From assembly GCA_022842935.1 (NCBI GenBank), contig JALHOP010000007.1:77592-141591 (forward strand): a stretch of 64,000 bases of DNA. The letters run 5' to 3'. The DNA comes from Myxococcota bacterium. Its GTDB lineage: Bacteria > Myxococcota > XYA12-FULL-58-9 > JALHOP01. Of the stretch, positions 3,778 through 39,564 are shown in pieces. The translations under genes and the position numbers were made by a program. The notes under the pieces are model-generated. The model saw only the letters and a program-made list of their open reading frames with translations. It was not told the origin of the DNA and searched no databases. The number at the start of each line of letters is the position of its first letter. The first letter of the stretch is position 1.

Positions 3778-5580
<1,803 letters not shown>

Positions 5581-5794
5581 GGGCTTCGTGGCTCGGGAAA
5601 ACCACGACAGTCGCAAGAATGTCACACATTGGTGCCCGGCGCACGTCGAGGTGGGCACGACCATCCAGAGGGCTATCGTCACTGGGGGGCGACGGCCGGG
5701 GCCGGGGATGACCCGAGCCGAGCGAGAGCGCCCCATCATGGCAGTGCCCCTCACCGCGTGGACCGCGAAGACGCACGCGTGTTACGCTTTGTCC

Positions 5795-6040
5795 ATGGTC
5801 GACAAGGCTCGCATCGTCAGTGCGCTCGTCGAGCTAGAGCTCGACCTGGTCGCCGCGTACCTGTTCGGCTCCGCCGCGCGGAATCAGCTCCGGAAGGGTA
5901 GTGACTTCGATCTCGGGGTCCTGACTGCGGGAGTGCCTCTTCTGCCCGTTCAGCGCTGGGAGCTTCAGGAGCAGCTAGCGGCGCAGCTCAATCGCAACAT
6001 CGACCTCATCAAGCAGCGCGGTTCTGTCTATGGTCGATGA
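5795..6040 (+). CDS. MNT-type nucleotidyltransferase antitoxin (partner of HepT)
   Basis: Minimal nucleotidyltransferase motif LFGSAARNQLRKGSDFDLGVL. Its 3' end overlaps the start of the HepT gene. Start chosen at the internal Met (MVDKAR); the ORF-track frame extends upstream and overlaps dnaK, which is implausible. An alternative start is about 57 nt upstream (MAVPL). Confidence 0.6.
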   Translation: MVDKARIVSALVELELDLVAAYLFGSAARNQLRKGSDFDLGVLTAGVPLLPVQRWELQEQLAAQLNRNIDLIKQRGSVYGR

Positions 6041-6455
6041 CGTCGTCCTCAACAAAGTCGCGAGCATCGAACGATGTCTGCAACGCGTGCGCGACGAGTA
6101 CGACGGCCGGCCAGAGAATCTCGACAACCAAACAAAGCAGGACGCGATCGTCTTGAATCTGCAGCGAGCGTGCGAAGCCTCGATCGACCTCGCGATGCAT
6201 CTGGTGAGCCGTTTGCGTCTCGGCGTCCCGCAGGAGAGGCGTGACGCATTCGAGCTCCTCGCAGGCGCTGGTCTGCTGCAGCGGTCACTAAGTGACGCTT
6301 TGAAGCAAATGGTCGGTTTTCGAAACGTCGCGGTGGACGACTATCAGAAGCTAAGCTTGCCCATCGTGAGGGCGATAGTGGAGCACCGGCTCGCTGACTT
6401 CGTCGATTTCTCGCGCGTGGCCATCGCGACGGCAGAGCGCACCGCATCCCAATAG
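6030..6455 (+). CDS. HepT-like (DUF86) toxin of a HepT/MNT pair
   Basis: DUF86/HepT-like sequence with a C-terminal Rx4HxY-type motif, here GFRNVAVDDYQKL (His replaced by Asp). An 11-nt overlap with the upstream MNT gene is typical toxin-antitoxin architecture. Confidence 0.65.
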   Translation: MVDDVVLNKVASIERCLQRVRDEYDGRPENLDNQTKQDAIVLNLQRACEASIDLAMHLVSRLRLGVPQERRDAFELLAGAGLLQRSLSDALKQMVGFRNVAVDDYQKLSLPIVRAIVEHRLADFVDFSRVAIATAERTASQ

Positions 6456-6500
6456 AGCGCTGAAAAGTTACGCCAAGGCGCTCGCGGTTCTCGAGGCGGA

Positions 6501-7928: not shown

Positions 7929-8023
7929 GAATCACCTCTAGTTTCCAGCTTGAGCCAAAGCGTTTTTCGCATCGCGAACCCCAAAAAGGCCCCATCCCGG
8001 CGACCCGCGGCTGAATTGCTGCG

Positions 8024-22017: not shown

Positions 22018-24318
22018 GTGGTCGTCTCGGGGCTTATCTTGAGGCCGATGGCCACCACCGACTCCACCGAGCTGCTGTCGAACCTCGTCGACGATGTACG
22101 CACCGCCTTCCGTGAGGACCGCACCATCCTCTCGTTCAAGGAGTACTTCGCGGCGGTGGTCGAAGACCCGGCCAAACACCTGCGCTCGTCGGCGCAGTAC
22201 CTGGTCGATATGTTCGAGCACTTCGGCCGCCAGGAGCTCGAGCTGCCCACCGGCAGAGCCACGCGCTTCACGCTCTTCGACGCGCCCTTCGCCGACGGCG
22301 AGGGCCGAGTCGCGGGCCAGGAGCACATCCAGGAGCAGCTCTACCGCATCATTGCGAACTTCGCGCGCGAGGGCCGCGTCAACAAGCTGGTCCTGCTGCA
22401 CGGCCCCAACGGCAGCGCCAAGAGCTCGATGGTGCGCTGTGTGATGGCGGCGATGGAGGCGTATTCGCGCGTCCCCGCGGGTGCGCTCTACAGCTTCAAC
22501 TGGATCTTTCCGAGCGAACGACTCTCGAGCGGCTCCATCGGTTTTTCGAACAACGGCCGACGCGCGCCAGCCGCCGCAGGTGACACCTACGCGTATCTGT
22601 CGGCCGAGCAGATCGACGCGCGCATCCCCGCCGAGATGCATGACCACCCGATCTTCTTGATCTCGCAAGAGCGACGCGCCGACCTCTTGAAAAAGCTCTT
22701 GCCAGAGTCCGCCAAAACGGTCGAGAACCCTGACGCGCCGCCGCGCGCGAGTATCAGCGATTACCTGCGCTTCGGTGATTTGTCCTACAAGTCGCGCAAG
22801 ATCTACGACGCTCTGCTTGCGAGCTATGACGGCGATATCGACAAGGTGCTCTCGCACGTTCAGGTCGAGCGCTTCTATCTTTCGAAGCGCTACCGCCGCG
22901 GCGTCGCCACCATCGAGCCGCAGATGTCGGTCGACGCCCGTATCCAACAGATCACCGCCGACCGTTCGCTTGGCTCGCTCCCGAAGGCGCTGCAACACAC
23001 ATCGCTCTACGAGCTCTCGGGGCCGCTGGTCGATGCCAACCGGGGTGTCCTCGAGTTCAGCGATCTGCTCAAGCGGCCAGTCGAGGCGTTCAAGTACCTT
23101 CTCAACACCATCGAGACCGCGACCGTTTCGATGGACTCGTTCGTGCTCCACCTCGACATGGTGTTCCTCGCATCGACCAACGAGATCTACCTCGACGCCT
23201 TCAAGGAGCACCCCGACTTTGCGTCGTTCAAGGGGCGTATGGAGCTCGTGAAGGTCCCGTATCTACTGCGCTACAAGGACGAAAAGGCGATCTACCAGCC
23301 GCAGATCACGCCGCGCGTCGTAGGTCGTCATATCGCACCGCACTCCATCGACGTTGCCGCGCTCTGGGCGGTGCTCACCCGCATGCGCAAATGTGATGCG
23401 TCGCTCTATCCGAAAGAGATGCGTGGGGTCGTCGACTCGCTCACGCCTTACGAGAAGCTGCGGCTCTACGATGAAGGCGAGACGCCCGACCGGCTGAGCA
23501 ACCGTGAGTCCGCCGAGCTCCGGAATCTCGTCCACCAGCTCTACCGCGAGTCGCTTGGCTACCCGAACTACGAGGGCCGCTTCGGTGCCTCGGCGCGCGA
23601 GATCCGCACAGCGCTGCTCAACGCCGCCCACCACGACACGTACCAGTATCTGAGCCCCGTCGCCGTGCTCGACGAGCTACGCGAGATCCTCAAAGCCAAG
23701 AGCGTCTACGAATTCCTGCGCCAAGAGGTGGTCGGCAAGTACCACGACCACGAGGCATTTCTGAAGCAAGCCGAGCAGCACTACATCCACTGGATCGATG
23801 AAGAAGTGCGCGATTCGATGGGGCTTGCCACCGAGTCGTCGTACGGCGAGCTCTTCACGAAATACGTGAGCAATGTCTCGCACTGGGTGAAGGGCGAGAA
23901 GATGCTCGACACCGTCTCGGGCCAGTACCGCGACGCCGACAAGGCGTTCATGGCGGAGATCGAGGGCGTCTTGATGAGCGAAGGTGAGCGGTCCGAGGAC
24001 TTCCGGCGGGCGGTCATCGGCACGATCGGCGCCCGTGCTCTCGAGAACCCCAACGCGCGACCCAACTACAACGAGCTCTTCAAACACTACATCGTAAGGC
24101 TACGCGAGGACTTCTTCACCAAGCGTCGCAAGGTCATCGAGCGCAATATCGAGAATTTCTTGAAGCTCACGAGCGACGATAAGGGCGTCGGCCTCGACCC
24201 CAAAGACGCCACGCAGGCGAAGGCCATGCTCGAGCGCCTCGTCACGACCTACAGCTACACAGAGCCCTCGGCGCGTGACACGGTCGCTTTCTTGCTCAAG
24301 CGCAAATACGCGGGGTAG
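22018..24318 (+). CDS. prkA: PrkA-family serine protein kinase (AAA+ type)
   Basis: Walker A LLHGPNGSAKSS and a PrkA-type AAA and C-terminal domain architecture. At 766 aa it is longer than the roughly 630-645 aa of characterised PrkA/YeaG. Confidence 0.8.
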   Translation: MVVSGLILRPMATTDSTELLSNLVDDVRTAFREDRTILSFKEYFAAVVEDPAKHLRSSAQYLVDMFEHFGRQELELPTGRATRFTLFDAPFADGEGRVAGQEHIQEQLYRIIANFAREGRVNKLVLLHGPNGSAKSSMVRCVMAAMEAYSRVPAGALYSFNWIFPSERLSSGSIGFSNNGRRAPAAAGDTYAYLSAEQIDARIPAEMHDHPIFLISQERRADLLKKLLPESAKTVENPDAPPRASISDYLRFGDLSYKSRKIYDALLASYDGDIDKVLSHVQVERFYLSKRYRRGVATIEPQMSVDARIQQITADRSLGSLPKALQHTSLYELSGPLVDANRGVLEFSDLLKRPVEAFKYLLNTIETATVSMDSFVLHLDMVFLASTNEIYLDAFKEHPDFASFKGRMELVKVPYLLRYKDEKAIYQPQITPRVVGRHIAPHSIDVAALWAVLTRMRKCDASLYPKEMRGVVDSLTPYEKLRLYDEGETPDRLSNRESAELRNLVHQLYRESLGYPNYEGRFGASAREIRTALLNAAHHDTYQYLSPVAVLDELREILKAKSVYEFLRQEVVGKYHDHEAFLKQAEQHYIHWIDEEVRDSMGLATESSYGELFTKYVSNVSHWVKGEKMLDTVSGQYRDADKAFMAEIEGVLMSEGERSEDFRRAVIGTIGARALENPNARPNYNELFKHYIVRLREDFFTKRRKVIERNIENFLKLTSDDKGVGLDPKDATQAKAMLERLVTTYSYTEPSARDTVAFLLKRKYAG

Positions 24319-24352
24319 GGTTTTAACGCCAAAACTAAGCTAGGGTAACGCC

Positions 24353-24802
24353 ATGTCGAGCTCCACGGCCGCAGCGCGCAAGAAATTCCTGGTCCCGTTC
24401 AACTTCAGCCGCAAGTCCGAGATGGCGCTCGACTTCGCCCTCCGCTATGGCGCACACATCGAAGTCGATATTTACATGTTCCACGTCTTCGAGGGGAAGG
24501 CCGGCGACTTCCGCAAGCTCGACCGCCAAAACGAAGAGTACCTCGAGCGCATGAAGCTGACGGTGAACCAGTGGGTCGAGCGTGCCGCGCAGGAGGGCAT
24601 CAACGCCCAGGCGCACGACGTCCATCGCCGTGTCGCCAACGGAAAGCCCGGTCTCGAGATCTTGAAGATGGCCGGCGGCATCAACGCCGACATGATCATC
24701 ATGGGGGCCCCGACGTCGTTCGGGTTCAGGCGCCTGCTCTCCAAGACGCCTTGCACCACGGTGCTCGTGAAGGATAAGGACCCGGCGTTCGTCGTCGCGT
24801 AA
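24353..24802 (+). CDS. universal stress protein (UspA family)
   Basis: Usp fold with an ATP-binding-type C-terminal motif (IIMGAPTSFGFRRLLSKTPCTTVLV). Confidence 0.75.
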   Translation: MSSSTAAARKKFLVPFNFSRKSEMALDFALRYGAHIEVDIYMFHVFEGKAGDFRKLDRQNEEYLERMKLTVNQWVERAAQEGINAQAHDVHRRVANGKPGLEILKMAGGINADMIIMGAPTSFGFRRLLSKTPCTTVLVKDKDPAFVVA

Positions 24803-27236: not shown

Positions 27237-29423
27237 TCAGTGACCCTGTCCGCAACGGCTGCAGACGTGGGCGCGTCCTTCGAGACTCATGTCGCCGTCG
27301 CTCGCCGCGACCAGACGACCATTGCGGTCGAAGACCAGCGAGCCGGCGACAGCAGCCAAAATTTCGTTCGGCTTGCCAAAGCGGACGCGGGTGAAGCCAT
27401 AGCCGTCGGTGATGCGCTCGAGCTCGACCACGCCTTCGGCGCTCGTCCAGCCACCGACGCGCGCGGCAAGCGGGCCCTGACCACGCCGAGCAGAATCGAC
27501 GTCGCCGATGGTTGCGACGGGGAGGTCGCGGGTGATGCGCGGAGTGGTGTCAGCGGCGAGGAGGCCCCGTTCCCGCAGGATGCTCTCGAAGCGCGCAACG
27601 GACTCGGGCGACTCGGTTTCGCGCGCGCCGCGCAATAGAGCAGCACCGATATCGTGCAGGGAGCCGCCGTTCTCGGGCATGAACAGCATCGCGGCGTGTA
27701 ACGTGCTCGCGCTGACATCACGCACCCGTTGCACACTGGCGACCGGGTCGGTGGCGCCACGCGCCGCGTCGGACGCCTCGCGAGCGAAGTGCTCGTAGAG
27801 AGCACCCGAGATGATCCGTGAAACATAGTGGTGCTCACCGGCTCGGCTGCCGTCTGGCACTGGCGGGTTCCCGGATGCCGCCGGATCGAGCCCCGCGATG
27901 TCGCTGACGCGAAGCACGCTCGCGGCGTCACGCAGCGCTTGGTTGCCGTCGTCGGCTGGGTCGCGCGTGCTCGAAGCGATGGTGCGCGCGAGTTGTTCGG
28001 CGATACGAGAGACAGAGTTGCTACGGGTGAGATCGCCTTCCGTCTCGGCGAGGGCCGCACGAATCACCTCGGGAGAGTCGAACGCGGTGAGAAGCGCGAC
28101 CGAGTCGCCATAGGCCTCGTGCATGGCGCGCCCTGGCGCCGAGGAGAACATCGCTGGCATCAGCGTCGCGAGCGCCGCGTGACCCGCCTCATGGCTGCCT
28201 ACGAAGCGATCTTGAGCGAGTCGAACGAGCTGCCCGGTGAGTGGCCGGATGCGCGCGATCTCGAACCCCGCCCGCATGAGGTCGCCGCCATAGCGCGCGC
28301 GCGCGCTGAGGGTCAGAAATCTGTCGATGGGTAGAGGCTCTTCACCCGAGGGCGGCCTGGCAAAACCCCCAAAGAGCCTGCCCGCGAGGCCTCCGTTGGT
28401 TTGGCGCGGGTCAGTGATCGTCTCTCGCGCCCGCTCCGCGGTGAGGAGGCGCTCGACCTCGGCGACGTCGTCACGGCGGGCGGCGTCGACGATGGCGCGC
28501 AGCGCGGCAGCTTGCGCCCGCACTTCGCGCAAGCCGGCGGGATTGAGCTCGGGGCGACTTTCGGCGGAGAGGCGCGACTCTGTCTCGGAGACGGCACTCT
28601 CGCGCTCAGCGAGGGCGTGCTCGAGGAACGCGACGCTCGAGCCGTCGAGCGGCACCAGCCGCCCGTCCCGGACGTTACCCAGCGAGCCGAGTTGCACTTC
28701 ACGTGTGCCGCCAACGAAAAACGCGTTCAGCTCCACGCTGCTCGAGCCGACAAACGCGTTGGGGCGCACCGTGAGCTGACCGCCATCGCCCCAAGGGATG
28801 GGGCGCCGTGCCGCGCGCTCGGCCAAGGTGATGGTCTGGTTCGCGGCATAAAACGCGGTGGTCTGAGCCGTGTCCACCTCTGGGGCGTCGAAGTGGCCCT
28901 CGGCGTTGGCGGTCACGGGTGCGACCTGGCTCGGCTCGGTGATGACGTTGGTGGTGAGCAGGCCGATGAGCGGCAGCTGCGCAAGACCCGGGATGTTCGA
29001 CTCGGCCGTCTTGATGTCGCCATCGACGGCGATGCGCACACGCGGACCTTCGAGGAGCGAGGGCGCGTTACGCGTGCAATAAAAGGCGCTGCCGGGGAGG
29101 CTCGCAACCGTGGCTGGCCGACTTCCGTCGTCTTGGTGGACCCGGAGGTTTACCCCCGGGGTGGTGCAGATCGGCGGCCGCAAGGCGCCCGCTGAGCCTC
29201 GGGTGATTGGGGGAACACCGAACGGGAGCCCCGGTAGATTCACCTCGGGTCTCTGAACCTCGCGCTCGGGGTTGCGCACGTCGGTGGGGGCTGCGCCTTC
29301 GCCTGCACCTGCAAGGGCGGCACGGGAGGGGATACGGGTCGGCGCGATTGGAGTCACTTGCCTCGCATCCTCTCTGGTGCGCGATACACGCCACCTAGTT
29401 TCGTTCAGGATGTTTATCGGCAT
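27237..29423 (-). CDS. M4 (thermolysin-like) zinc metalloprotease homologue
   Basis: HEAGH (HExxH) motif followed about 20 residues later by HEAYGDS, which matches the thermolysin xEAxSD third zinc-ligand motif. No obvious N-terminal signal peptide. C-terminus ends CSRCGQGH. Start uncertain; the only Met is at 29423. Confidence 0.55.
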   Translation of the reverse strand: MPINILNETRWRVSRTREDARQVTPIAPTRIPSRAALAGAGEGAAPTDVRNPEREVQRPEVNLPGLPFGVPPITRGSAGALRPPICTTPGVNLRVHQDDGSRPATVASLPGSAFYCTRNAPSLLEGPRVRIAVDGDIKTAESNIPGLAQLPLIGLLTTNVITEPSQVAPVTANAEGHFDAPEVDTAQTTAFYAANQTITLAERAARRPIPWGDGGQLTVRPNAFVGSSSVELNAFFVGGTREVQLGSLGNVRDGRLVPLDGSSVAFLEHALAERESAVSETESRLSAESRPELNPAGLREVRAQAAALRAIVDAARRDDVAEVERLLTAERARETITDPRQTNGGLAGRLFGGFARPPSGEEPLPIDRFLTLSARARYGGDLMRAGFEIARIRPLTGQLVRLAQDRFVGSHEAGHAALATLMPAMFSSAPGRAMHEAYGDSVALLTAFDSPEVIRAALAETEGDLTRSNSVSRIAEQLARTIASSTRDPADDGNQALRDAASVLRVSDIAGLDPAASGNPPVPDGSRAGEHHYVSRIISGALYEHFAREASDAARGATDPVASVQRVRDVSASTLHAAMLFMPENGGSLHDIGAALLRGARETESPESVARFESILRERGLLAADTTPRITRDLPVATIGDVDSARRGQGPLAARVGGWTSAEGVVELERITDGYGFTRVRFGKPNEILAAVAGSLVFDRNGRLVAASDGDMSLEGRAHVCSRCGQGH

Positions 29424-29862
29424 GCTGACGCCGATGGTGCGTGAAAGTGCAAAGGGCTATAGTCGCCAGTCTGTGGCGTTCGTTCGCGTAGCATCACGTG
29501 GCAGCAGCATGTGGCCGACGCTCCGGCACGGCGACACCTTGCTCGTCGACAACATGGCGCCGCCCGCCGTTGGCGACATCGTCGTGCTGCGAGCGGGTGA
29601 GGGGAGCTTTATCGCCCACCGTCTGGTGGCCATGGCAAACGGCCTGGTGCGTTGCACGAATGCCCGCGGCGAGCCCGACCCCTGGGTCAGTCGAGACCAT
29701 GTGTTCGGGCGGGTCGCCTGTGTCGAGCGCGATGGGCGCTTGCTCGCGGTTGGGCGCGAACCGCCAAATGTGCGTATCCTTTGGGCGTTGCGTTCGAGCT
29801 ATGGTCTAGCGCGACGCATCGCGCATCGCGTGCGCAGGAGCCTTCGTGATCGCCAAGCGTAA
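29410..29862 (+). CDS. S26-family signal peptidase of the ER/archaeal (SipW-like, Ser/His) type
   Basis: Catalytic Ser box GSSMWPTLRHGDTLLVD, then GDIVVLR. A His (IAHRL) sits where bacterial type-I SPases carry the general-base Lys, as in Sec11/SipW-type enzymes. Start approximate; Mets are available at 29410, 29422 and 29434. Confidence 0.6.
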   Translation: MFIGMLTPMVRESAKGYSRQSVAFVRVASRGSSMWPTLRHGDTLLVDNMAPPAVGDIVVLRAGEGSFIAHRLVAMANGLVRCTNARGEPDPWVSRDHVFGRVACVERDGRLLAVGREPPNVRILWALRSSYGLARRIAHRVRRSLRDRQA

Positions 29863-30121
29863 GTCACATGTCGTCGCGCGCCAGGTCGACGACGAAGCCG
29901 TGCTCGTGCCCATCCGCAACGACGCGTCGACGCCGCTCGCCATTCACGCCTTGGGGCCGGTCGCCGCTTTCGTATGGGGATTGTTGGATGGGGCGCGGGC
30001 GAGCGATGTCATCGCGGACATGGTGAGCGACGAGTTCGAGGTCGACGCGGCCACGGCGCGCGTTGACGTCGCGACCTTCTTGACCGAGCTCGAGGCTGCG
30101 GGTCTCGTGGAGGTCACATGA
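29846..30121 (+). CDS. PqqD-family protein (RiPP recognition element / peptide chaperone)
   Basis: Canonical PqqD/RRE pattern (VVARQVDDEAVLV...AAFVWGLLDGARASDVIADMVSDEFEVDAATARVDVATFLTELEAAGLVEV). Its stop overlaps the radical-SAM start (ATGA). Confidence 0.7.
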   Translation: MIAKRKSHVVARQVDDEAVLVPIRNDASTPLAIHALGPVAAFVWGLLDGARASDVIADMVSDEFEVDAATARVDVATFLTELEAAGLVEVT

Positions 30122-31230
30122 CCGACGTTGCCGCAAGCAAAGGTGACAATGGCGCTGTTCGTGACCTGTACCAGCGCGCGCTGCGGAAGCGGCGCATCCC
30201 CATGCAAGCGATCTTCGAGCTCACGTTGCGTTGCAACTTGCGGTGCGATCACTGCTACCTGGGAAGTGATCGCAAGCGTGACGAGCTGTCGACTGCCGAG
30301 GTCACGCGCATCCTCGATGAGCTCGCGGGTGCGGGGACGCTCATTCTCACGTTGACCGGCGGCGAGGTCATGCTGCGGCCGGACTTCGAAGACATTTATC
30401 GGCACGCCATCGCGCGCGGATTTTTGGTCAGCGTGTTCACCAACGCGACGCTCATCAAGCCTCGCCACGTCCAGCTGTTCAAGGAGCTGCCGCCACGCGT
30501 CGTCGAGGTCTCGCTGTACGGCTTGAGTGACGACGACTACGTCGACTTCACGCATGCGACGATCCCTTTTGCCGACGTCGACGCCAACCTGCGCGCGCTC
30601 AAGAGCGCGGGCGTCCATTTCGTCTTGAAGAGCGTCGCGACGGTCACGCTGGGTCCCAAGATCCGAGCCATGCGCGCCTACGCCGAAGCGCTCGGTGTGC
30701 ACTTCCGATTCTCGACGACAGTCTACGGCGCCAATGACGAGACGGCGCTTGCCGACCACGAGCGACCCTCGGCCGAGACAGTCTGCGACAACGAGCGCGG
30801 CATCGTGCCAGTCGAGAGCCCGAACCGCGTGCCGCTCCCAACTCTTCCGAATCGTGTCTTCAACTGCGGAGCGGGTCGCGTCGCCATGCACGTCGACCCC
30901 GAAGGCATCGCTTCGCGTTGTGGCATCGTTACGAGCGCGCTTGGCGCACACACCGACTTGCGCAAGGTTTCGGTGCGCGAAGCCTGGGAGCGATTGGGCG
31001 TTGGCCTCGACGACGAGCTGGCCGAGGGGCATCCGTGCCGCGACTGTGAGATTAGGGCGCTATGCCACCGGTGCCCTGCGACCTCGACGCCCGAGCAAGA
31101 GATCGCCATGTGCGAGACTGCGCATGCCCGGGCGCGCGAGCTCGACCTTCAGGTGGCGGCGGTAGCGCCGATGCGCCAATTCTGGCAACCTCGGGAAGAG
31201 TCGATCTTGAAGCGGAGATTTCGTGGCTGA
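30118..31230 (+). CDS. radical SAM / SPASM-domain peptide-modifying enzyme
   Basis: CNLRCDHC (CxxxCxxC) radical-SAM cluster motif. C-terminal SPASM Cys cluster (FNCGAGR...CRDCEIRALCHRCP). Confidence 0.85.
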   Translation: MTDVAASKGDNGAVRDLYQRALRKRRIPMQAIFELTLRCNLRCDHCYLGSDRKRDELSTAEVTRILDELAGAGTLILTLTGGEVMLRPDFEDIYRHAIARGFLVSVFTNATLIKPRHVQLFKELPPRVVEVSLYGLSDDDYVDFTHATIPFADVDANLRALKSAGVHFVLKSVATVTLGPKIRAMRAYAEALGVHFRFSTTVYGANDETALADHERPSAETVCDNERGIVPVESPNRVPLPTLPNRVFNCGAGRVAMHVDPEGIASRCGIVTSALGAHTDLRKVSVREAWERLGVGLDDELAEGHPCRDCEIRALCHRCPATSTPEQEIAMCETAHARARELDLQVAAVAPMRQFWQPREESILKRRFRG

Positions 31231-31390
31231 CAGCAACCATCCGGCGCGCAAGCGCAAAGCCTATCAGCCACCGAAGCTCGAGACCGTCGAGGTCGTCGCC
31301 GAGGAAGCGCTGCTCGCTCTCTGCGCTTTCGGTGGTGGAACGCCCCAGACCGTCATGCAGGGCGCCCCCTGCGAGGTCTGCAAGAGTTGA
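31223..31390 (+). CDS. candidate RiPP precursor peptide (55 aa, not in the ORF track): VADSNHPARKRKAYQPPKLETVEVVAEEALLALCAFGGGTPQTVMQGAPCEVCKS
   Basis: GTG start overlaps the radical-SAM stop (GTGGCTGA) and is preceded by GCGGAG. It sits directly between the maturase and the kinase. Charged N-terminal leader-like half, a Gly-Gly-Gly junction, a core with three Cys and a C-terminal Ser. Confidence 0.5.
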   Translation: MADSNHPARKRKAYQPPKLETVEVVAEEALLALCAFGGGTPQTVMQGAPCEVCKS

Positions 31391-31421: not shown

Positions 31422-32255
31422 GTGCGTGACATTGCTTTTGGGCCCATCGCTCTGCGCATCGCCGGAGACCTCGCGGCTGTTCGCTGGCCGCTCGGGGCCG
31501 ACGACGTGCAGGTCGCTCCGCGGGTAGGCGCGAAAGTCGTGCACACCGAGCTCGTCGACGACCTACCGCCGCTCGCGAACCCGACCATCGACACGGGGGT
31601 GTGGCGCGCCGCTGCCTCGGGAGACGGCACGCGCTTCGCAATCACGGTTCCTCCTGACGCTCGCGTCGTCGCCGATTTTCACTGGGGTACATCGATGGTT
31701 TTGCGCGTTGTTCGCGATTTCATCGGCTTCGACCGCGCCCCCTGGTTCGACATCCTCGTACAGCTTGCGGTGGCCGAGATGGCGCCTTCCTGCGCAGGCT
31801 TGGCGCTCCATGCGGCCTGCCTCGAGATCGGGGGTCGCGCTGTACTCCTGTGTGGGCGTTCGGGGGCAGGCAAGACCACGCTCGCTGGCCGCCTAATCCG
31901 TGCGGGGGGGCATCTGATGAGTCATGATCGAACAATCCTGTTCGGAAGCGGCGCATGGCGTGCCGTTTCGACTCCCTGGGGACACGATGGAAGGTTGGCG
32001 AGCGCCGAGCGCGAACGGGATGTCGGCGCTGTCTTGTTTCTCGAGCAAGCCCCCGTCAACAGTAGTGAACGACTGACCGGCGTGCGTGGTATGGCGCGCG
32101 TTGGGTCGGTGGTGCTCGGAGCCCGGTCTGCCAAAGCGGTTATGAGCAAAGCAATGGAAGTGGCGGAGCACCTCGTGCGTGAGGTGCCCTGCCACGTCGT
32201 GCGTTTGACGAACGACGAGCGAGCGACGGAACACGTGCTGGAGTTGTTGCGATGA
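31422..32255 (+). CDS. HprK-like P-loop kinase (HPr kinase C-terminal domain homologue)
   Basis: LLCGRSGAGKTTLAGRLIRAGGHLMSHDRTILF matches the HprK C-domain pattern GxSGxGKS...GHxLxxDD. Start placed at the first in-frame GTG after the precursor stop. The ORF-track frame extends upstream over the precursor and radical-SAM gene and is unlikely to be real there. Confidence 0.6.
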   Translation: MRDIAFGPIALRIAGDLAAVRWPLGADDVQVAPRVGAKVVHTELVDDLPPLANPTIDTGVWRAAASGDGTRFAITVPPDARVVADFHWGTSMVLRVVRDFIGFDRAPWFDILVQLAVAEMAPSCAGLALHAACLEIGGRAVLLCGRSGAGKTTLAGRLIRAGGHLMSHDRTILFGSGAWRAVSTPWGHDGRLASAERERDVGAVLFLEQAPVNSSERLTGVRGMARVGSVVLGARSAKAVMSKAMEVAEHLVREVPCHVVRLTNDERATEHVLELLR

Positions 32256-35203
32256 GATTCGCAGTTTTGGTGATTGTGGGCTCGGCCCTCCTGGCGAGTA
32301 GCGCAAACGCCGCCTACATCGCCAACATCACCATCGACGGAAATGCCGCAGACTGGAGCGGCATGTATCAGTTTCGTGACCGCAACGAGACGACCCAGAC
32401 TGGTACCGACATCCCCGACCGCTACGATGTCGACACCGTCTACGTCGCGAATGACGGCACGTACCTGTACTGGGCGATCAACACGTACGGTGCGATCAGC
32501 GGTAACCTCTCATGGCGCATCTACGTCGACCCGAACAACGACACGGCTTCGGGTGGCGGCTACGGCCAAGACGACCGCTACGTCGAGTTCGATACCAACA
32601 ACGGCACCTGCCAGGCAGTGACCGTCCACGACGCCGACAACAATGCGGTGCGCAACCCTGCCATCGGGTGCGGGAACGGCGCCAACATCAACGTGGCTTT
32701 CAGCGGCACCTTCATCGAGGGGCGCATCTTGCTTTCGCGCCTTTTCACGACGGTCCCCACCGGCGGCAACCTCAACATCGGCGTCCTCGTGCAGGTCATT
32801 CCGAACACGGGCAACACGGCGACCGAGCTCGCGCCGGGGCAGCCGCTTCCGTCGTTCATCGACTACGACAATCGTGGCACTCTGGTCCCCACCTTTGTCC
32901 GCGTCCGCGGACTGACCGCCGAAGCAGCTGAAGGTGGCGTACTCGTGCGTTGGCGCACGAGCGCTGAGTACTTCAGCGCCGGTACCTGGGTGGTCCGGGC
33001 GAGCGGCGACGACTGGGTGCCCGTAAGTGGCGAACCTTCCGCGACACAGAACCAGGCGACCGGCGACAGTTACGCCGTGGTCGATGCCAATGGAGGGCCG
33101 GGGGACATCTACGCGCTCGTCGAAGTCGACAGCCGCACTATCGTGCGCGTCTTCGGGCCCGTGACGGCCGTGAAGAGCGCCGTGACCTTGCCCACGCGCT
33201 CACAGCGTCTCGCCAGCAACCTGACGAGCAACGCCCGTCGCATCGCGTCCCTCGATCAGCGCCTGCGCGTGCGCACCGCTGCCCTGGACAACATCCTGAG
33301 TGGCGGCCCGCTCCCCGGGCGCTTCCCGCAGCTCGACGTCGATGTAACCCGCGAAGGTCTATTCGTCGTCTGCGATAGCGATACGCTACGTTATGGTGGC
33401 GTGCCTGCGAAGATCACGCGCGGCGCCGAGGTCGTACGTGGCTTTGCGGTGAGTACGCCGTGCGCGGGCCTTGGCTTCTACGCGCCGGCTCCGAGCTCGC
33501 CCTACGCGCCGTTCGACGTCTACCGCGTGCAACTCGCGGCCGCGCGCAACCTCTCGCTCATCGACGCGCCCCTCGTGACGACGTACGACGGCCCCGTATC
33601 ATTGGCAACGCTGTCCACGCTCGTGACACCGCGCCGCTATCTCGACATGCGCGACGGGCAGCCCAACCGTTTCTTCTGGAGCTACGCCTCGACCTCGCCA
33701 AGCGCTCCCGTCGACCTTCCCGCGATTCCGGGTTACGCCGACATGACCGTCGACGTGCATCCGCTCTCTGGCGGCGCGACGCACACCCTCGTGGTTGCGA
33801 CCGATCGCGAGCTTGGTCGCTACACGGTCGGTGACGGTTGGAGCCGAATCGACTTCACCAACCTGGCGGTGAACGGCGCTCCGGCTCTCACCTTCGTGGT
33901 CGAAGCAGAACAAGGCGTCATCGAGACGGTCTTGCTCGCCGACGCTACCGTCCGCTATCGCGGCGAGCCTGCCCAGGCCGAAAACGGTGTGCATTTCGGC
34001 GCCGACGGTGACAGCTGGGTCGGTGTCCGAGGCGGCGAAGGTTTCGCCTTCGATGTCACGCAACCGCGCGACCCAAGCCTCCTCGTCGTCGCCCCATACG
34101 CGAACGGCACCGTCGTACACACGCAACCCGAGACCCGCGATGTCTTCATCGCCAAGACCTTCACGAAGCTCCAAGCCGTGCCCACCCTCGTCGATGCGTT
34201 CATTGACGAGCCGGGGAGCGGCGCCGAATACCTAGTTCTCACACCGGCCTCGCTCGTGGACACCGCGCGTGAGCTCGCACAGCTGCGGGCCGAAGAGGGG
34301 ATGAGCACAGCGGTGCTCTCCTACGAGGCTGTCTACGCGCGTTTCACTGGCTCGAACCCCGACCCGACGGCCGTCGCGAAGCTCCTCGATTGGGCCGCTG
34401 TCCGCTGGAGCGTCGCACCGCGCTACCTCGTGCTCGTAGGTAGCACGAGCTCGGACCCGTATGGCTATACTGGGTCGCAGCGGCTCGCCGACGCGCCCAT
34501 CGCCGAGAGCTTGGACCCCGACTTTACCTACCGGCGCTTCAGTGACCGCGACCTCACGGGCTCGCATCAGGTCGCCGTCGGGCGCATTCCTACCTCTGAC
34601 GCTTATGAGCTTGGCCGCTACGTCGAGAAACTCCGCGCCCACCGCGAGCGGAGCGCAACGGGCGTCTGGTCAGTACTCGCTGGGGCCTCGACCCCCGATG
34701 AGCCCTCGTATGCTGGCCTCGTCAACAACATCGCGGCGCAGGTCGCCGAGTCGGTGACCATCGATCGCTTGGACGACGCAACCACCGTTGACCTCGTGAA
34801 TGCATGGGGCGCGGCCGACGTCATTGCCTACGCTGGTCACGGCGATGCCGAGTCGTGGGCAGACGACGTGCTCTACACCGAGCTTGCGCCAAACCTCGTG
34901 ACGGAGCGGCCACCCGTGACCCTTTCTGCGGCTTGCATGGACGCAATGACCACCAGCGCCAACGGAGGCCTCGCCTGGTCCTTGGTGTCCGCTGAAGTGG
35001 GTCGCGGTAGCATCGCAGCCATTGCGCCAAGCAGCATCATCGAGCCTATCAGGGCCTCTGCGTTCCTCGGACGGGCGGCTGCAGCCATCGCGCACGGTGA
35101 GGCGGCGCGCTGGGGGGATGCCTGGTTGCTCGCGCAGATGAGTGATACGAGTGTCGCCGCGCGGTCGATGGTGCTCATCGGCGACCCAGCGCTCAGCCCA
35201 TGA
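32252..35203 (+). CDS. secreted C25 (gingipain-like) cysteine peptidase family protein, 983 aa
   Basis: Sec signal peptide (ALLASSANA-AY). C-terminal region carries VIAYAGHGD (His box) and TLSAACMD (Cys box) in the order and spacing seen in the C25 catalytic domain. Its ATG overlaps the kinase stop (ATGA). Confidence 0.55.
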   Translation: MRFAVLVIVGSALLASSANAAYIANITIDGNAADWSGMYQFRDRNETTQTGTDIPDRYDVDTVYVANDGTYLYWAINTYGAISGNLSWRIYVDPNNDTASGGGYGQDDRYVEFDTNNGTCQAVTVHDADNNAVRNPAIGCGNGANINVAFSGTFIEGRILLSRLFTTVPTGGNLNIGVLVQVIPNTGNTATELAPGQPLPSFIDYDNRGTLVPTFVRVRGLTAEAAEGGVLVRWRTSAEYFSAGTWVVRASGDDWVPVSGEPSATQNQATGDSYAVVDANGGPGDIYALVEVDSRTIVRVFGPVTAVKSAVTLPTRSQRLASNLTSNARRIASLDQRLRVRTAALDNILSGGPLPGRFPQLDVDVTREGLFVVCDSDTLRYGGVPAKITRGAEVVRGFAVSTPCAGLGFYAPAPSSPYAPFDVYRVQLAAARNLSLIDAPLVTTYDGPVSLATLSTLVTPRRYLDMRDGQPNRFFWSYASTSPSAPVDLPAIPGYADMTVDVHPLSGGATHTLVVATDRELGRYTVGDGWSRIDFTNLAVNGAPALTFVVEAEQGVIETVLLADATVRYRGEPAQAENGVHFGADGDSWVGVRGGEGFAFDVTQPRDPSLLVVAPYANGTVVHTQPETRDVFIAKTFTKLQAVPTLVDAFIDEPGSGAEYLVLTPASLVDTARELAQLRAEEGMSTAVLSYEAVYARFTGSNPDPTAVAKLLDWAAVRWSVAPRYLVLVGSTSSDPYGYTGSQRLADAPIAESLDPDFTYRRFSDRDLTGSHQVAVGRIPTSDAYELGRYVEKLRAHRERSATGVWSVLAGASTPDEPSYAGLVNNIAAQVAESVTIDRLDDATTVDLVNAWGAADVIAYAGHGDAESWADDVLYTELAPNLVTERPPVTLSAACMDAMTTSANGGLAWSLVSAEVGRGSIAAIAPSSIIEPIRASAFLGRAAAAIAHGEAARWGDAWLLAQMSDTSVAARSMVLIGDPALSP

Positions 35204-37107
35204 AACAGGTCCTCCCTGTTGTACTTCTAGTTTGCGTGTTCGCGGCGTGCTCCGGTGACGGGAGCGAGGCGCTACTGCGGGTCGACGCGCGCGGTGTCCA
35301 AGCGCTGCGCTCCGCGCTCGACCTCGCCACTGGTCGTCTCACCATCAACTGCACCGACGGGCGTCGGTTCGACGTACCGGTCGCGCTCGATGCAATCGAG
35401 CCGCCGGGGCAAGAGCTGACCGTGGCGGTCCCTGCGTGCGGCGATGCGCGCATCGAGTTCCAAATCCTTTCGGGCGTCGGCGTCCCCGAGCTACGGGGCG
35501 CGAACGACGCCGTCCTCGTGCCGGGCTTCGTGGATGTGGAGATCCCGCTCGGCTATGTTGGCCAGCTCTCACTAAGTCTTGCCACTGACTCGCTCGTCGA
35601 GAGCTGCGTCGCCGTGGTCGAGCGCACCTCACCCGATCGCGTCCTCGTCGAAAGCGCGCTCACGCTGACCCGCACCGAAGTGACGTCGCTCATCGTCCCC
35701 ATCGGTAGCTACGACGTCACGTGCGACGGCCGCATCGCCCAGACTCTCGTGAGCCCGGGCCTCAACGTCGACGTCGCCCTCATTGACCCGGTGCCCGGTC
35801 CGCGGCTCATCAGCACCACCCTGCAGCCGAGCTATCCGCCGACCACCGCGCGCATCGACGTGACCTTCACATTTTCGGCGCCGGTGACTGGTGTCGACGC
35901 GAGTAGCGTGAGCCTCGACAACGACGGCACCATCCAGGCCGTGAGCGGGAGCGGTTCGAGCTACACCGTGACCTTCAATGGCCTCAACATTGGCACTGAC
36001 TACATCGTCACCCTGTCAGCCAGCATCGTCGACAGCGAAGGTCTTCCCCTGGTCGGCGCTCCGCTCCGCCTGCCCTTCCGCATCCGCGCCAACGAATACT
36101 TCGTGTCGACAGCTGGCGACGACAGCGTCAACAGCGGCACCGACCCGACGAGCCCTTGGCGCAATATCGCGTTTGCGGTGGCCAGTGCCTCGACGCCCGC
36201 GCGCATCTACGTCGCCGCTGGTACGTATGACGAGCAGGTGTTTCTCGCCAGCGATGTCACCATCGAAGGCGGCTGGTCAGCGGACTTCGTGACACGCGAC
36301 CTTGCCACTAACGAGAGCCGTGTCCGCGCGAGCAATCAGACGGTCTTTTTCGGCAGTGTCGGCAACGCCGTTGTCGATGGGCTGACCATCGAAGCGACGC
36401 AGCCGCAGCAAGTCGTGGTGATGCAGAACGCCGATGCCACCTTGCGTAACTGCATCGTCACCGGAGCGGGAGGAACCTTTCCGACTGGCTATGGCGTGTT
36501 CATCGAAGGCCTGGGTCTACCGAGTCTCGTCAACAACGTCATCGCGGTGTCGGCGGGCTCTTCGAGCACCTACGCGGTCTTCGTTCAGAACGGCGGTAGC
36601 GCCCGCGTCATCCACAACACCATCGACGCGGGTGATCGTGGCATCGTCTCCGGTGTCTACCTCGACAGCGCCGCGGGCGACGTCAGCATCGTGAACAACC
36701 TCTTTGTTGGTGGCACCACCGTCAACACCCGCGTCGGCATCACCGGGGAAGCGCCTCCTACCGCCCTTGTGAACAACGCGTTCTCGGCCGAACACGATGA
36801 TGCGTATCGCAACGCCGCTGGCACCGGGCTTCCCATCGGCGCGGCCGGTGACTTCGGCTTTACCGCGCCGCACCGCTTTAGCGGCAACGTGCTCGTGGCA
36901 GCTACCGCAGCCTTGGTTAGCGGTGGCGACTACCGCAGCACACCCGACAGCTCACTCCAGATCGGCATTGACTCGGCGCCCGCGGATTGCGGATTCACAG
37001 ACACCTCCGCCTACCCGTGTTTCGGTCCGACGACGGACCGCTTGGGACAGGCGCGCGCGGTCCCGACGACGGTTGGTGCCTACGCGTCCGGTGCCGGAGC
37101 GCTTTGA
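35200..37107 (+). CDS. lipoprotein with right-handed parallel beta-helix (pectate-lyase-like) repeats
   Basis: Lipobox LLVCVFAAC. Repeated beta-helix rungs (NAVVDGLTIEA, LRNCIVTGAGG, LVNNVIAVSAG, VIHNTIDAGD, SIVNNLFVGG). Its start overlaps the preceding stop (ATGA). Confidence 0.6.
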   Translation: MKQVLPVVLLVCVFAACSGDGSEALLRVDARGVQALRSALDLATGRLTINCTDGRRFDVPVALDAIEPPGQELTVAVPACGDARIEFQILSGVGVPELRGANDAVLVPGFVDVEIPLGYVGQLSLSLATDSLVESCVAVVERTSPDRVLVESALTLTRTEVTSLIVPIGSYDVTCDGRIAQTLVSPGLNVDVALIDPVPGPRLISTTLQPSYPPTTARIDVTFTFSAPVTGVDASSVSLDNDGTIQAVSGSGSSYTVTFNGLNIGTDYIVTLSASIVDSEGLPLVGAPLRLPFRIRANEYFVSTAGDDSVNSGTDPTSPWRNIAFAVASASTPARIYVAAGTYDEQVFLASDVTIEGGWSADFVTRDLATNESRVRASNQTVFFGSVGNAVVDGLTIEATQPQQVVVMQNADATLRNCIVTGAGGTFPTGYGVFIEGLGLPSLVNNVIAVSAGSSSTYAVFVQNGGSARVIHNTIDAGDRGIVSGVYLDSAAGDVSIVNNLFVGGTTVNTRVGITGEAPPTALVNNAFSAEHDDAYRNAAGTGLPIGAAGDFGFTAPHRFSGNVLVAATAALVSGGDYRSTPDSSLQIGIDSAPADCGFTDTSAYPCFGPTTDRLGQARAVPTTVGAYASGAGAL

Positions 37108-37134: not shown

Positions 37135-39564
37135 GTGCGAGCGCGTCGAACCTGTGCGACACTGCTATCGATGAGGCGAAGGCTCACACTGTTCGCGCTG
37201 CTGTCTAGTTGCTCGGTCGATCTCCAGATCCCGGATGCTGCGGACATCGCCTGCGAGAGCGACGATGACTGCCCATCGGGCTTCATCTGCGATGTGCGCA
37301 GTCAGTGCCGCAGCCCGGAGGTCGCGGCGCGCGGTGTCCCCGGGTTCGACATTACTCCGACGACCGTCACCGTCGGGGAGTCCGGCACGCCGACGGTCGT
37401 TAACGTGCGCCTCACCGCGCAGCCGACCGCGGCGGTCACTCTCGTGCTCGCGCCCGATGACGGCAGCGAAGCGTTCATCTCCAAGAATGTGCTGACGTTT
37501 ACACCGGAAAACTACAACATCGCTCAAGCAGTCACGGTCGTCGGCGAGCGCGACTGCCTCGCGGACGGGCCCATCGTCTCGCACATCCTGATTTCTCCGG
37601 CCCAGAGTCTGGACCCCGACTACAACGGCCTCGACGCGCCAGATCTGGAAGTCACCACCAACGACGACGTGCCTTCCGCGGGGATCGTGGTTACGCCTCC
37701 CAGCGGCCTCGAGACCAACGAGAGCGGCAACGTGACCCAGTTCACCGTCGTCGTCGCTTGTAAGCCCACGGCGGACGTTCATTTTACCCTGGCGTCGACG
37801 GACGAAACCGAAGGCACCATCACCACGACTGAGCTCACTTTCACGCCTGACAACTGGGCGGTCCCGCGCGTCATCAACGTAGCGGGCAAGGGTGACTGCG
37901 AAACCGACGGTGACGTCACCTATGCCGTCGATCTCGGTAGGGTCGCGAGCGACGACCCGCTCTACGCGGGCATCGATGCGCCGAACGTCGAGCTCGTCAA
38001 TCGTGACGTTGTTTTCGGGCGGGTCAACGTCTCGCCCAACAACGGCCTGCGGACCACCGAAGGCGGCGGGCAAGCGACGTTCTCGGTGACGCTCACTTGC
38101 GCGCCGAGCGCCAATGTCATCGTGCCGATTGGCACAGGTGACGGAAGCGAAGGCACTCCGGGCGCGACGACGAGCCTCACGTTTACTCCGGCCAACTGGG
38201 GCGAGCCGCAAGCGGTCATCATCACCGGCGTAAATGACTTCTACGACGACGGTAACATTGCGTACGCCATCACCACCGGCACGCTCAATAGCACCGACCT
38301 TGGCTTCAATGGGCTCGATCCTGTCGATGTCAGCGTTACCAACGAAGACGACGACACAGCGAGCGTCACCGTGACCCCGACCACCGGTCTGCACACGACC
38401 GAAGCCGCGGGCACGGCGCAGTTCAGCATTCAGCTCGGGGCCGAGCCCCTATCACCCGTGCAGATCGCCATCGCCAGCACCGACACAGCCGAAGGGACCG
38501 TCGTCGGCACCACGGTGACGATCGCCGACCGCAATCCACGTTTCATCACCATCACCGGCGTGAACGACCCGGTCGACGACGACAACAAGAGTTACACCAT
38601 CACGCTGGGCGACATCGTCAGCAGCGACCCCGCCTTTAGCGGCATGGCGGTGCCCGACGTCGCAGTCATCAACGACGACGACGACACCGCGGGATTCACG
38701 CGCTGGGAGAACGCTGTATACGTCACCGAGGCGGGCAGCACCGCGGACGTGCGGCTCAGTCTCGCCTCGAGGCCGAGCGCCGACGTCAATTGCGTGGTCG
38801 ACGACACGTTCAACGACAACGAGATCCGTGTGGGCACTACCGGTTCGGTGAACGTGACGTTTACGCCGGTGACCTACGGCCTGTTGCAGTCGGTGACCGT
38901 GACGGGGGTGAACGACGGCGTCGCTGATGGCCTCTCGAATCCGTTGCCTTCGGTCCGTACCCAGTGCACGTCCGCGGACCCAAAGTACAACGGCATGCAA
39001 TACTACGTGACAGCCTACACCATCGAGCCGGCCAGCTCGCGGCGCGTCTACCAGACCGCAACAGCGGGCTACACCGGCAATCAGATCGCGATCACCACGG
39101 CTGACACCATTTGTCAGAACAACAACCCCATCGGCAGCGGCACCTGGAAGGCGATGCTCACCTCGTCGGATCCTACGGCGCCATCGGCGTTGCGGCGCGC
39201 CTGCACGACGCCCAACTGTGTCAGCAGTAGTGAGAATCAAAACTGGGTCTTCAGGCCGGCCTTCACGTATTACTGGTCCGGTGTGAACGGCATCGTCGGC
39301 ACGACGAACGCCGCTGGCATCTTCACCGGCATGATCGATGGCACACCGCCTAGCTCGGGCACCGCAGGTTTCGCTGGCTACTGGACCGGCATGAGCGCCG
39401 ATTTCACGAACAACGCCAATTGCAACAATTGGTCGACCACCAGCGGCACGGGGTCGGTTGGTCTCGACCGCCAGTCCACTGTCGGCAACACATTCGGCTG
39501 GAATCCGGGCATCGCCACCTTCGACTGCACCCAGACCCATCAGCTGCTGTGCATCGAGCAGTGA
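37135..39564 (+). CDS. lipoprotein with roughly six tandem 95-aa Ig-like repeats and a C-terminal C-type-lectin-like domain
   Basis: Lipobox LFALLSSC. Repeating unit VTPxxGLxTxExGxxAxFxVxL...LTFTPxNWxxPQxVxVxGxxD. The C-terminus ...WNPGIATFDCTQTHQLLCIEQ resembles the end of C-type lectin folds. Confidence 0.6.
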   Translation: MRARRTCATLLSMRRRLTLFALLSSCSVDLQIPDAADIACESDDDCPSGFICDVRSQCRSPEVAARGVPGFDITPTTVTVGESGTPTVVNVRLTAQPTAAVTLVLAPDDGSEAFISKNVLTFTPENYNIAQAVTVVGERDCLADGPIVSHILISPAQSLDPDYNGLDAPDLEVTTNDDVPSAGIVVTPPSGLETNESGNVTQFTVVVACKPTADVHFTLASTDETEGTITTTELTFTPDNWAVPRVINVAGKGDCETDGDVTYAVDLGRVASDDPLYAGIDAPNVELVNRDVVFGRVNVSPNNGLRTTEGGGQATFSVTLTCAPSANVIVPIGTGDGSEGTPGATTSLTFTPANWGEPQAVIITGVNDFYDDGNIAYAITTGTLNSTDLGFNGLDPVDVSVTNEDDDTASVTVTPTTGLHTTEAAGTAQFSIQLGAEPLSPVQIAIASTDTAEGTVVGTTVTIADRNPRFITITGVNDPVDDDNKSYTITLGDIVSSDPAFSGMAVPDVAVINDDDDTAGFTRWENAVYVTEAGSTADVRLSLASRPSADVNCVVDDTFNDNEIRVGTTGSVNVTFTPVTYGLLQSVTVTGVNDGVADGLSNPLPSVRTQCTSADPKYNGMQYYVTAYTIEPASSRRVYQTATAGYTGNQIAITTADTICQNNNPIGSGTWKAMLTSSDPTAPSALRRACTTPNCVSSSENQNWVFRPAFTYYWSGVNGIVGTTNAAGIFTGMIDGTPPSSGTAGFAGYWTGMSADFTNNANCNNWSTTSGTGSVGLDRQSTVGNTFGWNPGIATFDCTQTHQLLCIEQ

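Follow-up and report, generated by a model that had tools for sequence, protein, structure and literature searches.

The first gene of a conserved eight-gene operon in the 64,000-nucleotide stretch of Myxococcota DNA analysed here (contig JALHOP010000007.1, positions 77,592 to 141,591; hereafter, the window) encodes a small peptidase of clan SF. The protein is a Ser/His enzyme, closest by sequence to the Sec11, archaeal and SipW-type signal peptidases (family S26B), and has no transmembrane (TM) anchor. In a gene module, its family is combined with a stand-alone leader-recognition protein of the PqqD type and with an HprK-like kinase (ScmC), to which a radical S-adenosylmethionine (rSAM)/SPASM maturase and a short precursor peptide are often added. 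The best explanation is that the protein is a soluble or peripherally membrane-associated cytoplasmic endopeptidase with Ser33 as the predicted nucleophile, His70 as the predicted base and Asp90 as the predicted third catalytic residue. Based on the association of genes, it is somewhat probable that this enzyme serves as a PqqD-guided leader peptidase for the 55-aa precursor encoded in the same operon.

The open reading frame (ORF) of the peptidase is a real gene, since orthologues exist and purifying selection acts on them. Orthologues were found in a JGI contig (L008, 68% identity), in a Myxococcota metagenome-assembled genome (MAG; L012, 49%) and in a Bdellovibrionales MAG (L013, 52%), and the pairwise dN/dS values against these three range from 0.18 to 0.43, with dS near 1. 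Besides the ATG at 29410 (150 aa), two alternative starts are available, an ATG at 29422 (146 aa, the start called by NCBI) and a TTG at 29272 (196 aa). A word-indexed homologue search with the single peptidase protein returned only the same gene under three start codons. An exhaustive phmmer search retrieved 1,499 representatives at E ≤ 1e-3, clustered at 50% identity and amounting to about 1,500 in all. The residue counts given below refer to an alignment (A1) of the best 150 homologues out of these 1,499 representatives. In the databases, members of the family are labelled either "signal peptidase I" or "S24/S26 family peptidase".

In Pfam, the window protein matches Peptidase_S24 (E-value, 1.3e-6; 28.5 bits) and Peptidase_S26 (E-value, 8.8e-5; 22.9 bits). 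Its top NCBIfam model is that of the archaeal-type signal peptidase (TIGR02228; 24.8 bits, cut-off 51.85), and the bacterial signal peptidase I (SPase I) model TIGR02227 gives 23.5 bits (cut-off 47), both scores being below the curated cut-offs; the SipW model has no match for the window protein at E ≤ 0.001. Among the relatives, TIGR02228 is matched by 144 of the 150, and the SipW model by 45. Comparison of the family profile with sequences of the PDB gave SEC11C (E-value, 4e-13) and SEC11A (2.7e-12) as the best matches; bacterial SPase I reached 1e-4 and LexA/UmuD 1e-3. The AlphaFold2 (AF2) model (predicted local distance difference test score, 84) has the beta core of the LexA/UmuD/signal peptidase clan followed by a long C-terminal helix. 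Foldseek matched it, with modest E-values and a probability of 1.0, to UmuD', LexA, SpsB, SEC11A and SipA (4n31). UmuD' and LexA come out on top because their core is equally compact, and the likeness is limited to the shared core.

The residues expected of an S26B enzyme were identified one after another along the sequence. The Ser box reads GSSMWPTL; position 33 is Ser in 143 of the 150 homologues, M34 and P36 are invariant, and the "SMwP" of the family profile is aligned to the "SMEP" of SEC11A and SEC11C. Four family members carry Cys at the nucleophile position, e.g., "YGCCMWP" in L077 (12-1469, − strand). H70 and R71 are invariant (150/150), and in HMMER alignments H70 faces the bacterial SPase I Lys (4me8, "vAKRLi"; 4nv4, "yVKRIIG") and His96 ("IVHRV") of human SEC11A. 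These results bear out the initial annotation, which had read an S26-type Ser box and a His in place of the Lys general base from the sequence alone; no Lys was found at this position, and no helix-turn-helix (HTH) such as a LexA/S24-type repressor would carry. The Ser/Lys dyad of S26A enzymes (LepB, SpsB) is accordingly lacking, as are the features of S24 proteins: besides the His, only about 30 residues precede the Ser, and these are disordered in the model.

As for the third residue, D90 is aligned to the last Asp of the SEC11A sequence "GDNNAVDD", which is Asp122 in our numbering of that protein. The family consensus there is "GDalaepD", and column 90 holds Asp in 131 and Glu in 7 of the 150 sequences. 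Of the acidic pair of box E, the window protein thus has the distal Asp, and the proximal one is replaced by Asn: the "GD" reads "TN", with N84 at a position occupied by Asp in 147 homologues (98%). Within the alignment, Asn in this column is seen in three proteins only, that of the window and the two relatives nearest to it (P0004 and P0005). The orthologues in L012 and L013 read "CANA" here, and the pattern of the clade is "C(A/T)NA...D", as opposed to "RGD" elsewhere.

No TM segment was detected in the peptidase. The Kyte-Doolittle (KD) value, averaged over 19 residues, peaks at 1.16 even when the longest ORF (196 aa) is taken, which agrees with the initial remark that a clear N-terminal anchor was lacking, and a hydrophobic segment ahead of the Ser occurs in only 2 of the 150 relatives (148 have none). 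The reading frame of the L013 orthologue is interrupted by a stop 11 codons ahead of the Ser box and starts at the TTG at 10004, so that only about 10 residues precede the catalytic Ser and an N-terminal anchor cannot be accommodated. A hydrophobic segment after the domain (KD ≥ 1.6) is present in 19 of the 150. In these anchored relatives, an Arg-rich or otherwise basic stretch lies ahead of the TM helix, which places their catalytic domain in the cytoplasm. The window protein has at the corresponding position an amphipathic helix of 32 residues, with the highest hydrophobic moment of the protein (0.71) and a net charge of +8; in the model, this helix is compatible with peripheral membrane association.

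Gene fusions place the family on the same side of the membrane. ScmC–peptidase fusions are encoded in L036 (4922-6346, −), L056 (1419-3179, −) and L104 (125-1501, −); a peptidase–NTP_transf_5 (nucleotidyltransferase) fusion is found in L059 (5111-6715, +) and in two of the 150 representatives, among which peptidase–GNAT fusions also occur. The fused proteins of these three kinds are P0088, P0106, P0025, P0043, P0047, P0080, P0101 and P0140. Since the partners are enzymes that need ATP, NTP or acetyl-CoA, the peptidase family is predicted to be cytoplasmic. In four other proteins (P0102, P0139, P0141 and P0099), the peptidase domain is followed by a signal-peptide-like segment, with a basic n-region, a hydrophobic core and A-x-A, and then by a secreted domain, which in P0102 is a PorU-like C25 peptidase; these look like the outcome of a fusion between the peptidase gene and the preprotein gene next downstream. 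Thus, given the lack of a TM segment, the sub-cut-off match to TIGR02228, the cytoplasmic fusions and the position of the TM helix (if any) after the domain, the peptidase is very probably no signal peptidase of the ordinary kind.

The genomic company of the family was examined in two samples. In the neighbourhoods of eight different peptidase relatives, PqqD adjoins the peptidase in seven, often with overlapping stop and start codons, rSAM genes are present in six, mostly with a SPASM domain (a seventh, in L008, was found by tblastn), and ScmC (PF27840, HprK-like) in four. L001 and L002 have the arrangement C25, peptidase, PqqD (and C25) without an rSAM gene. The L001 segment (1691-9432) contains genes for a Cys-free peptide of 50 aa, for one C25 protein, for the peptidase and PqqD and for another C25 protein, and no rSAM or ScmC gene is present in the 15.8 kb of the locus. 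That PqqD and the peptidase are retained together in this reduced set argues that they are a working pair. The second, independent sample consisted of 80 loci obtained by a DNA-pattern scan of metagenome contigs and scored with hidden Markov models built from the sequences gathered here; 30 contained a family member, and the other 50, chance matches totalling 287 kb, were taken as the negative control. Partner genes were found in 23 of the 30 family loci, and four of the seven partnerless loci are shorter than 2.1 kb. ScmC was present in 18 of the 30, PqqD in 15, rSAM in 9, NTP_transf_5 in 7 and C25 in 2, as compared with a single rSAM match and no other partner in the control loci. The setting of a leader peptidase for peptides that are ribosomally synthesized and undergo post-translational modification (RiPPs), namely a precursor, a RiPP recognition element (RRE) and modifying enzymes kept across genomes, is therefore found in the window, in L012 and L013, in seven of the eight neighbourhoods and in 23 of the 30 loci.

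It had been proposed that homologues might co-occur either with the rSAM/PqqD pair or with the C25-like protein. The former holds (PqqD in 7/8, rSAM in 6–7/8); the latter holds in L001, L046, L101 and the fusion P0102, where C25 is adjacent to or fused with family members, yet fails as a general rule. The C25/PorU-like link is genuine, but it concerns a minority of the family.

The 55-aa peptide of the window is conserved in L012 and L013 (67–76% identity), with three invariant Cys and a C-terminal Ser. Small ORFs next to other family members share with it the pattern (K/R)(K/R)PYxxPx(L/F)..E..(F)ETxALAC(G/A)K...C...S-stop, and the leader YxxPx(L/F)...E(T)xxLA(x)C is common to the window peptide and those of other family loci; in lasso peptides, PqqD-like RREs bind the leader at a YxxPxL motif. 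The precursor family, defined by the PYxxPx(L/F) leader, the ETxALAC(G/A)K junction and two or three Cys, is found in L009 (1666-1848), L011 (4069-4212), L003 (15513-15698), L043 (1351-1581), L084 (11643-11837 and 6080-6310, the latter on the − strand), L107 (1036-1284) and L010 (3912-4205), in addition to the window. In loci with ScmC almost all peptides end in Ser, and the L001 peptide, from a locus with neither ScmC nor rSAM, has no Cys and ends in Arg. The association of a terminal Ser with the HprK-like ScmC gene suggests that this Ser may be modified. In about 10 of 17 precursors, the residues ahead of the first Cys were read to be small at −3 and −1 (ALA|C, SLA|C, ATG|C, VSG|C), and S26 enzymes prefer small residues at these positions. 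A double-glycine (GGG) cleavage site was also considered and ruled out, as the motif is not conserved in L013. A regular-expression search for precursors in the rSAM-less loci gave nothing convincing.

The features of the peptidase and of its operon are listed in Table 1. As the initial annotation had stated, the peptidase heads the operon: it is the first gene and is translationally coupled to the next, the PqqD start overlapping its stop by 17 nt, and such overlaps of start and stop codons run on through the beta-helix gene. The order of the eight genes (peptidase, PqqD, rSAM, 55-aa peptide, ScmC-like, C25-like, beta-helix lipoprotein, DUF1554 lipoprotein) is kept in L013, and in L012 as far as the contig reaches. 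In NCBIfam, the window PqqD is matched best by lasso PqqD chaperones and the rSAM enzyme by maturases of sactipeptides and mycofactocin, no score reaching its cut-off; annotation of a SPASM domain is confined to the rSAM homologues of related loci. The ScmC-like protein likely starts at the GTG at 31422, judging by the sequence and the N-terminus in L013, and its homologues in neighbouring loci are annotated as PF27840 ScmC. The C25-like protein is weakly matched by PorU models, its start overlaps the ScmC stop, and its identity to the L012 and L013 counterparts is 57–61%. The DUF1554 protein matches the NCBIfam model OM_LenF_fam (E-value, 1.9e-8) below its cut-off and is 59% identical to its counterpart in L013.

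Table 1. Positions in the window of the peptidase, its predicted functional elements and the other operon genes.
Feature	Position	Strand	Remarks
Anchorless Sec11/SipW-like (S26B-like) Ser-His-Asp peptidase gene	29410..29862	+	150 aa; ORF, Pfam S24/S26, family search, AF2, dN/dS
Ser box S32-S33-M34-W35-P36-T37	29503..29520	+	S33 (29506-29508), predicted nucleophile
H70-R71 (box D "AHRL", context IAHRL)	29617..29622	+	Predicted general base and conserved Arg
Box E equivalent T83-N84-A-R-G-E-P-D90	29656..29679	+	D90 (29677-29679), predicted third triad residue
C-terminal Arg-rich amphipathic helix, residues 119-150	29764..29859	+	AF2 helix 119-149; position of the TM helix in some relatives
PqqD-family peptide-recognition (RRE) protein	29846..30121	+	Pfam PqqD, E 8.8e-15
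Radical SAM peptide maturase	30118..31230	+	Pfam Radical_SAM, E 2.9e-23; 70-79% identity in L012, L013
55-aa precursor peptide MADSNHPARKRKAYQPPKLETVEVVAEEALLALCAFGGGTPQTVMQGAPCEVCKS	31223..31390	+	GTG start, GGAG 5 nt upstream
ScmC/HprK-related kinase-like protein	31422..32255	+	P-loop GRSGAGKTT; weak Hpr_kinase_C, HprK_rel_A and ScmC matches
Exported C25/PorU-like cysteine-peptidase homologue, Sec signal peptide	32252..35203	+	Pfam Peptidase_C25, E 7e-33, full profile
Beta-helix lipoprotein (Big_5 + NosD/Beta_helix)	35200..37107	+	Pfam; conserved in L012, L013
DUF1554/LenF-like lipoprotein, last conserved operon gene	37135..39564	+	Pfam DUF1554, E 2.7e-25

A scan for promoters and terminators around the operon performed no better than on shuffled sequences, its composition is not unusual, and PADLOC gave no defence-system match. 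Divergent from the operon lies a 728-aa ORF (27237-29423, −) with HEAGH and HEAYGD motifs and the look of a zinc metalloprotease, which matched nothing in Pfam or NCBIfam; its annotated start would overlap that of the peptidase, and the ORF was not found beside the operon in L012 or L013. A few kb upstream (22018-24802), a PrkA-like 766-aa ORF and a 149-aa ORF, both named from their translations only, are apparently unrelated to the operon.

From these genes, a maturation pathway can be proposed, for which we infer substrate, cleavage site and order of steps from the conserved neighbourhood. PqqD would bind the YQPPKL leader motif of the 55-aa precursor, the rSAM enzyme would cross-link its three Cys, the kinase-like protein would modify the conserved C-terminal Ser, and the peptidase would cut off the leader, most likely at the conserved small residues right ahead of the first Cys (...EALLA|LC...), a site which in most relatives is A-x-A-like at −3/−1. 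The initial annotation had mentioned a leader peptidase for the small peptide as its second option, and this option fits the conserved PqqD/ScmC/rSAM/precursor neighbourhood, cleavage itself being predicted.

Several observations weigh against this proposal. Beyond fold and catalytic residues, the role is assigned through guilt by association, and PqqD could serve the rSAM enzyme or the kinase instead of the peptidase. The window clade has Asn84 in place of the near-universal "GD" Asp, whose counterpart in Escherichia coli LepB and yeast Sec11 is reported to be important for activity. In the same clade, the precursors read ALLA, then L, V or A, then Cys, so that the exact A-x-A|C site is not conserved, and the cut one residue earlier, as drawn above, is a guess from the sequence. 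The peptidase is also the least conserved protein of the operon (49–52% identity, vs. 57–79% for the others), the operon encodes no exporter, and the recurrent link to C25 falls outside what a pure leader peptidase would explain.

The last point leads to a different role, in which the peptidase would be a cytoplasmic-face partner of the exported C25/PorU-like protein, e.g., a membrane-proximal processing or assembly factor. P0102 joins the peptidase domain to a PorU-like C25 through a signal-peptide-like TM segment with A-x-A, P0139, P0141 and P0099 are similar fusions, L001 combines the peptidase and PqqD with C25 proteins and dispenses with rSAM and ScmC, and the basic amphipathic C-terminal helix suggests proximity to the membrane. 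Against this, C25 is found in 2 of the 30 loci, the common partners being ScmC and PqqD, and where the genes are separate only the signal peptide of the C25 protein would be expected in the cytoplasm. Such a role is therefore improbable, if the best placed of the alternatives.

Slightly less credit is due to two further readings. The peptidase may be a weakened or non-catalytic peptide-binding subunit that holds the precursor for the rSAM enzyme or the kinase; precedents are the lasso B1 protein and SipA, a signal peptidase homologue from Streptococcus pyogenes. Such a subunit would suit the Asp-to-Asn change seen in the window clade, the presence of SipA (4n31) among the structural matches and the fact that, of the operon proteins, the peptidase diverges fastest. 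On the other hand, Ser, His, Arg and D90 are kept in the window protein and its orthologues at about 50% overall identity, dN/dS stays below 0.45, and Asn could still form a hydrogen bond with R71; loss of catalysis is thus unlikely. It is equally doubtful that the peptidase acts at another step of the pathway, trimming the precursor elsewhere or degrading the product for self-protection or turnover. The gene association is the same as for a leader peptidase, and the cleavage site is a predicted one; yet conservation in the precursors is concentrated in the N-terminal leader and in the junction that leads up to the first Cys, the C-terminal parts being variable, and the conservation of Ser to the very C-terminal end argues against C-terminal trimming.

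The reading preferred in the initial annotation, a SipW-like type I signal peptidase dedicated to the C25-like, beta-helix and DUF1554 preproteins, is very unlikely. Its nearest relatives of known function are indeed the Sec11, archaeal and SipW signal peptidases, three exported proteins are encoded downstream in the same conserved operon with ordinary Sec or lipobox signals, as had been noticed, and a C25 gene neighbours a family member in L001, L046 and L101 and is fused to one in P0102. The topology contradicts it all the same: the window protein and 148 of the 150 relatives have no N-terminal TM anchor, the L013 orthologue has no room for one, the fusions are to cytoplasmic kinase-like, nucleotidyltransferase and GNAT enzymes, and the basic residues before the C-terminal TM helix of the anchored relatives put the domain inside, when the Sec and lipobox signals of the three proteins are cut on the opposite membrane face. 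Furthermore, neither signal peptidase I model is matched above its cut-off, the lipoboxes read from the sequences make two of the three proteins substrates of LspA rather than SPase I, and C25 is rare in the sampled family loci. Finally, a LexA/UmuD-type self-cleaving regulator (S24), at which the slightly higher Pfam S24 score and the leading UmuD' and LexA structural matches hint, deserves hardly any credence, because the base position holds an invariant His instead of Lys, there is no HTH (which together rule out a LexA-type repressor) or other N-terminal domain, the family profile favours SEC11 by about nine orders of magnitude, and the operon is a biosynthetic one.

Several known systems resemble the peptidase and its operon in part. 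With Sec11/SEC11A-C, the archaeal SPase I and SipW (MEROPS S26B; TIGR02228, NF046067), it shares the SMxP motif, the His-Arg (instead of Lys-Arg) box D and, of the "GDxxxxxD" in box E, the distal Asp. It differs from them in being smaller, anchorless and cytoplasmic by prediction, with a long C-terminal amphipathic helix, N84 for the "GD" Asp, scores below the family cut-offs and RiPP-type partners instead of secretory substrates. In lasso peptide systems, a PqqD-like RRE (B1) and a leader peptidase (B2) likewise work on a YxxPxL leader, just as in the window a discrete PqqD is coupled translationally to a small peptidase. Unlike the transglutaminase-like Cys protease B2, however, the window peptidase is a clan SF Ser/His enzyme, and the window has an rSAM enzyme but neither a lasso cyclase nor a Thr at −2 in the precursor. 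By this analogy, the peptidase and PqqD may be the functional counterpart of the B1/B2 pair on a different protease fold.

The SynChlorMet cassette and the HPr-rel-A system (TIGR04248-04251, TIGR04352/04353; PF27840 ScmC) also combine a PqqD relative, an HprK-like ScmC, an rSAM/SPASM protein and a short peptide. The window proteins are nevertheless far below the equivalog cut-offs (ScmC, 24.7 vs. 125 bits; ScmD, 25.9 vs. 100; HprK_rel_A, 27.9 vs. 200), and none of them reaches the cut-off of ScmC, ScmD, ScmE/F, HprK_rel_A or PqqD_rel_X. HprK-like kinases are known from the phosphorylated lasso peptides paeninodin and pseudomycoidin, where, as in the window, such a protein is encoded beside a precursor ending in a conserved Ser; the context here is rSAM and not lasso, and phosphorylation is hypothetical.

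A precedent for a cytoplasmic propeptide peptidase is SodX, the maturation protease of nickel superoxide dismutase (NiSOD; TIGR02754), a small, anchorless and soluble S26-type enzyme dedicated to one cytoplasmic propeptide. Its model gives weak matches with 75 of the 150 family members (window protein, 20.9 bits; cut-off, 63.25). Unlike the situation of SodX, no sodN gene lies near the window peptidase, and closer to SodX are the proteins of L014-L026. These come from Marine Group II/Poseidoniales archaeal MAGs and are mostly anchorless Ser/Lys-type enzymes of about 100 aa (GDSMWPTLRDGD ... VKRV ... GDNPDP..SxDSH). They made up most of the hits of a search for related loci with a three-sequence alignment (A4), were recovered solely through the common MWPT motif, constitute a separate family resembling the NiSOD maturation protease, and are of no use as an archaeal Sec11 outgroup. 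L016, which belongs to a Planctomycetota MAG, encodes a Lys-type signal peptidase that is longer and has an anchor, and L027 of the same search was a chance match.

In the literature covered, which is incomplete and leaves an earlier description possible, no paper linking S24/S26 peptidases to PqqD, HprK-like or rSAM systems was found, and a 2023 review of RiPP leader proteases makes no mention of S24, S26 or signal-peptidase-type enzymes. The family described here is large and uncharacterised; it combines a known catalytic design with a new location and new partners, and probably has a new role. As a tentative and broader proposal, which we hold with less confidence than the leader peptidase role itself, the family may represent an unrecognised class of RiPP leader peptidases, i.e., anchorless cytoplasmic Sec11-like Ser-His-Asp enzymes guided by a discrete PqqD RRE. 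RRE, HprK-like kinase and peptidase would then form the core of a widespread pathway to peptides modified at a C-terminal Ser, and in the organism studied here a thioether-cross-linked product would be passed to the exported PorU-like C25 protein and the two lipoproteins for surface processing or attachment.

The label "signal peptidase I" on these proteins is misleading and is corrected here. If the leader peptidase role is borne out, bacteria have put the signal peptidase design of the endoplasmic reticulum (ER) and archaea to use in a soluble cytoplasmic enzyme that matures ribosomal peptides, and the present catalogues of RiPP leader peptidases would gain a protease fold that they lack. 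The peptidase would also provide a new genome-mining marker for a widespread, unstudied pathway made up of an RRE, an HprK-like kinase and a peptidase, with or without an rSAM enzyme. That such a module has a PorU-like C25 protein and two lipoproteins conserved alongside it makes this operon worth experimental follow-up.

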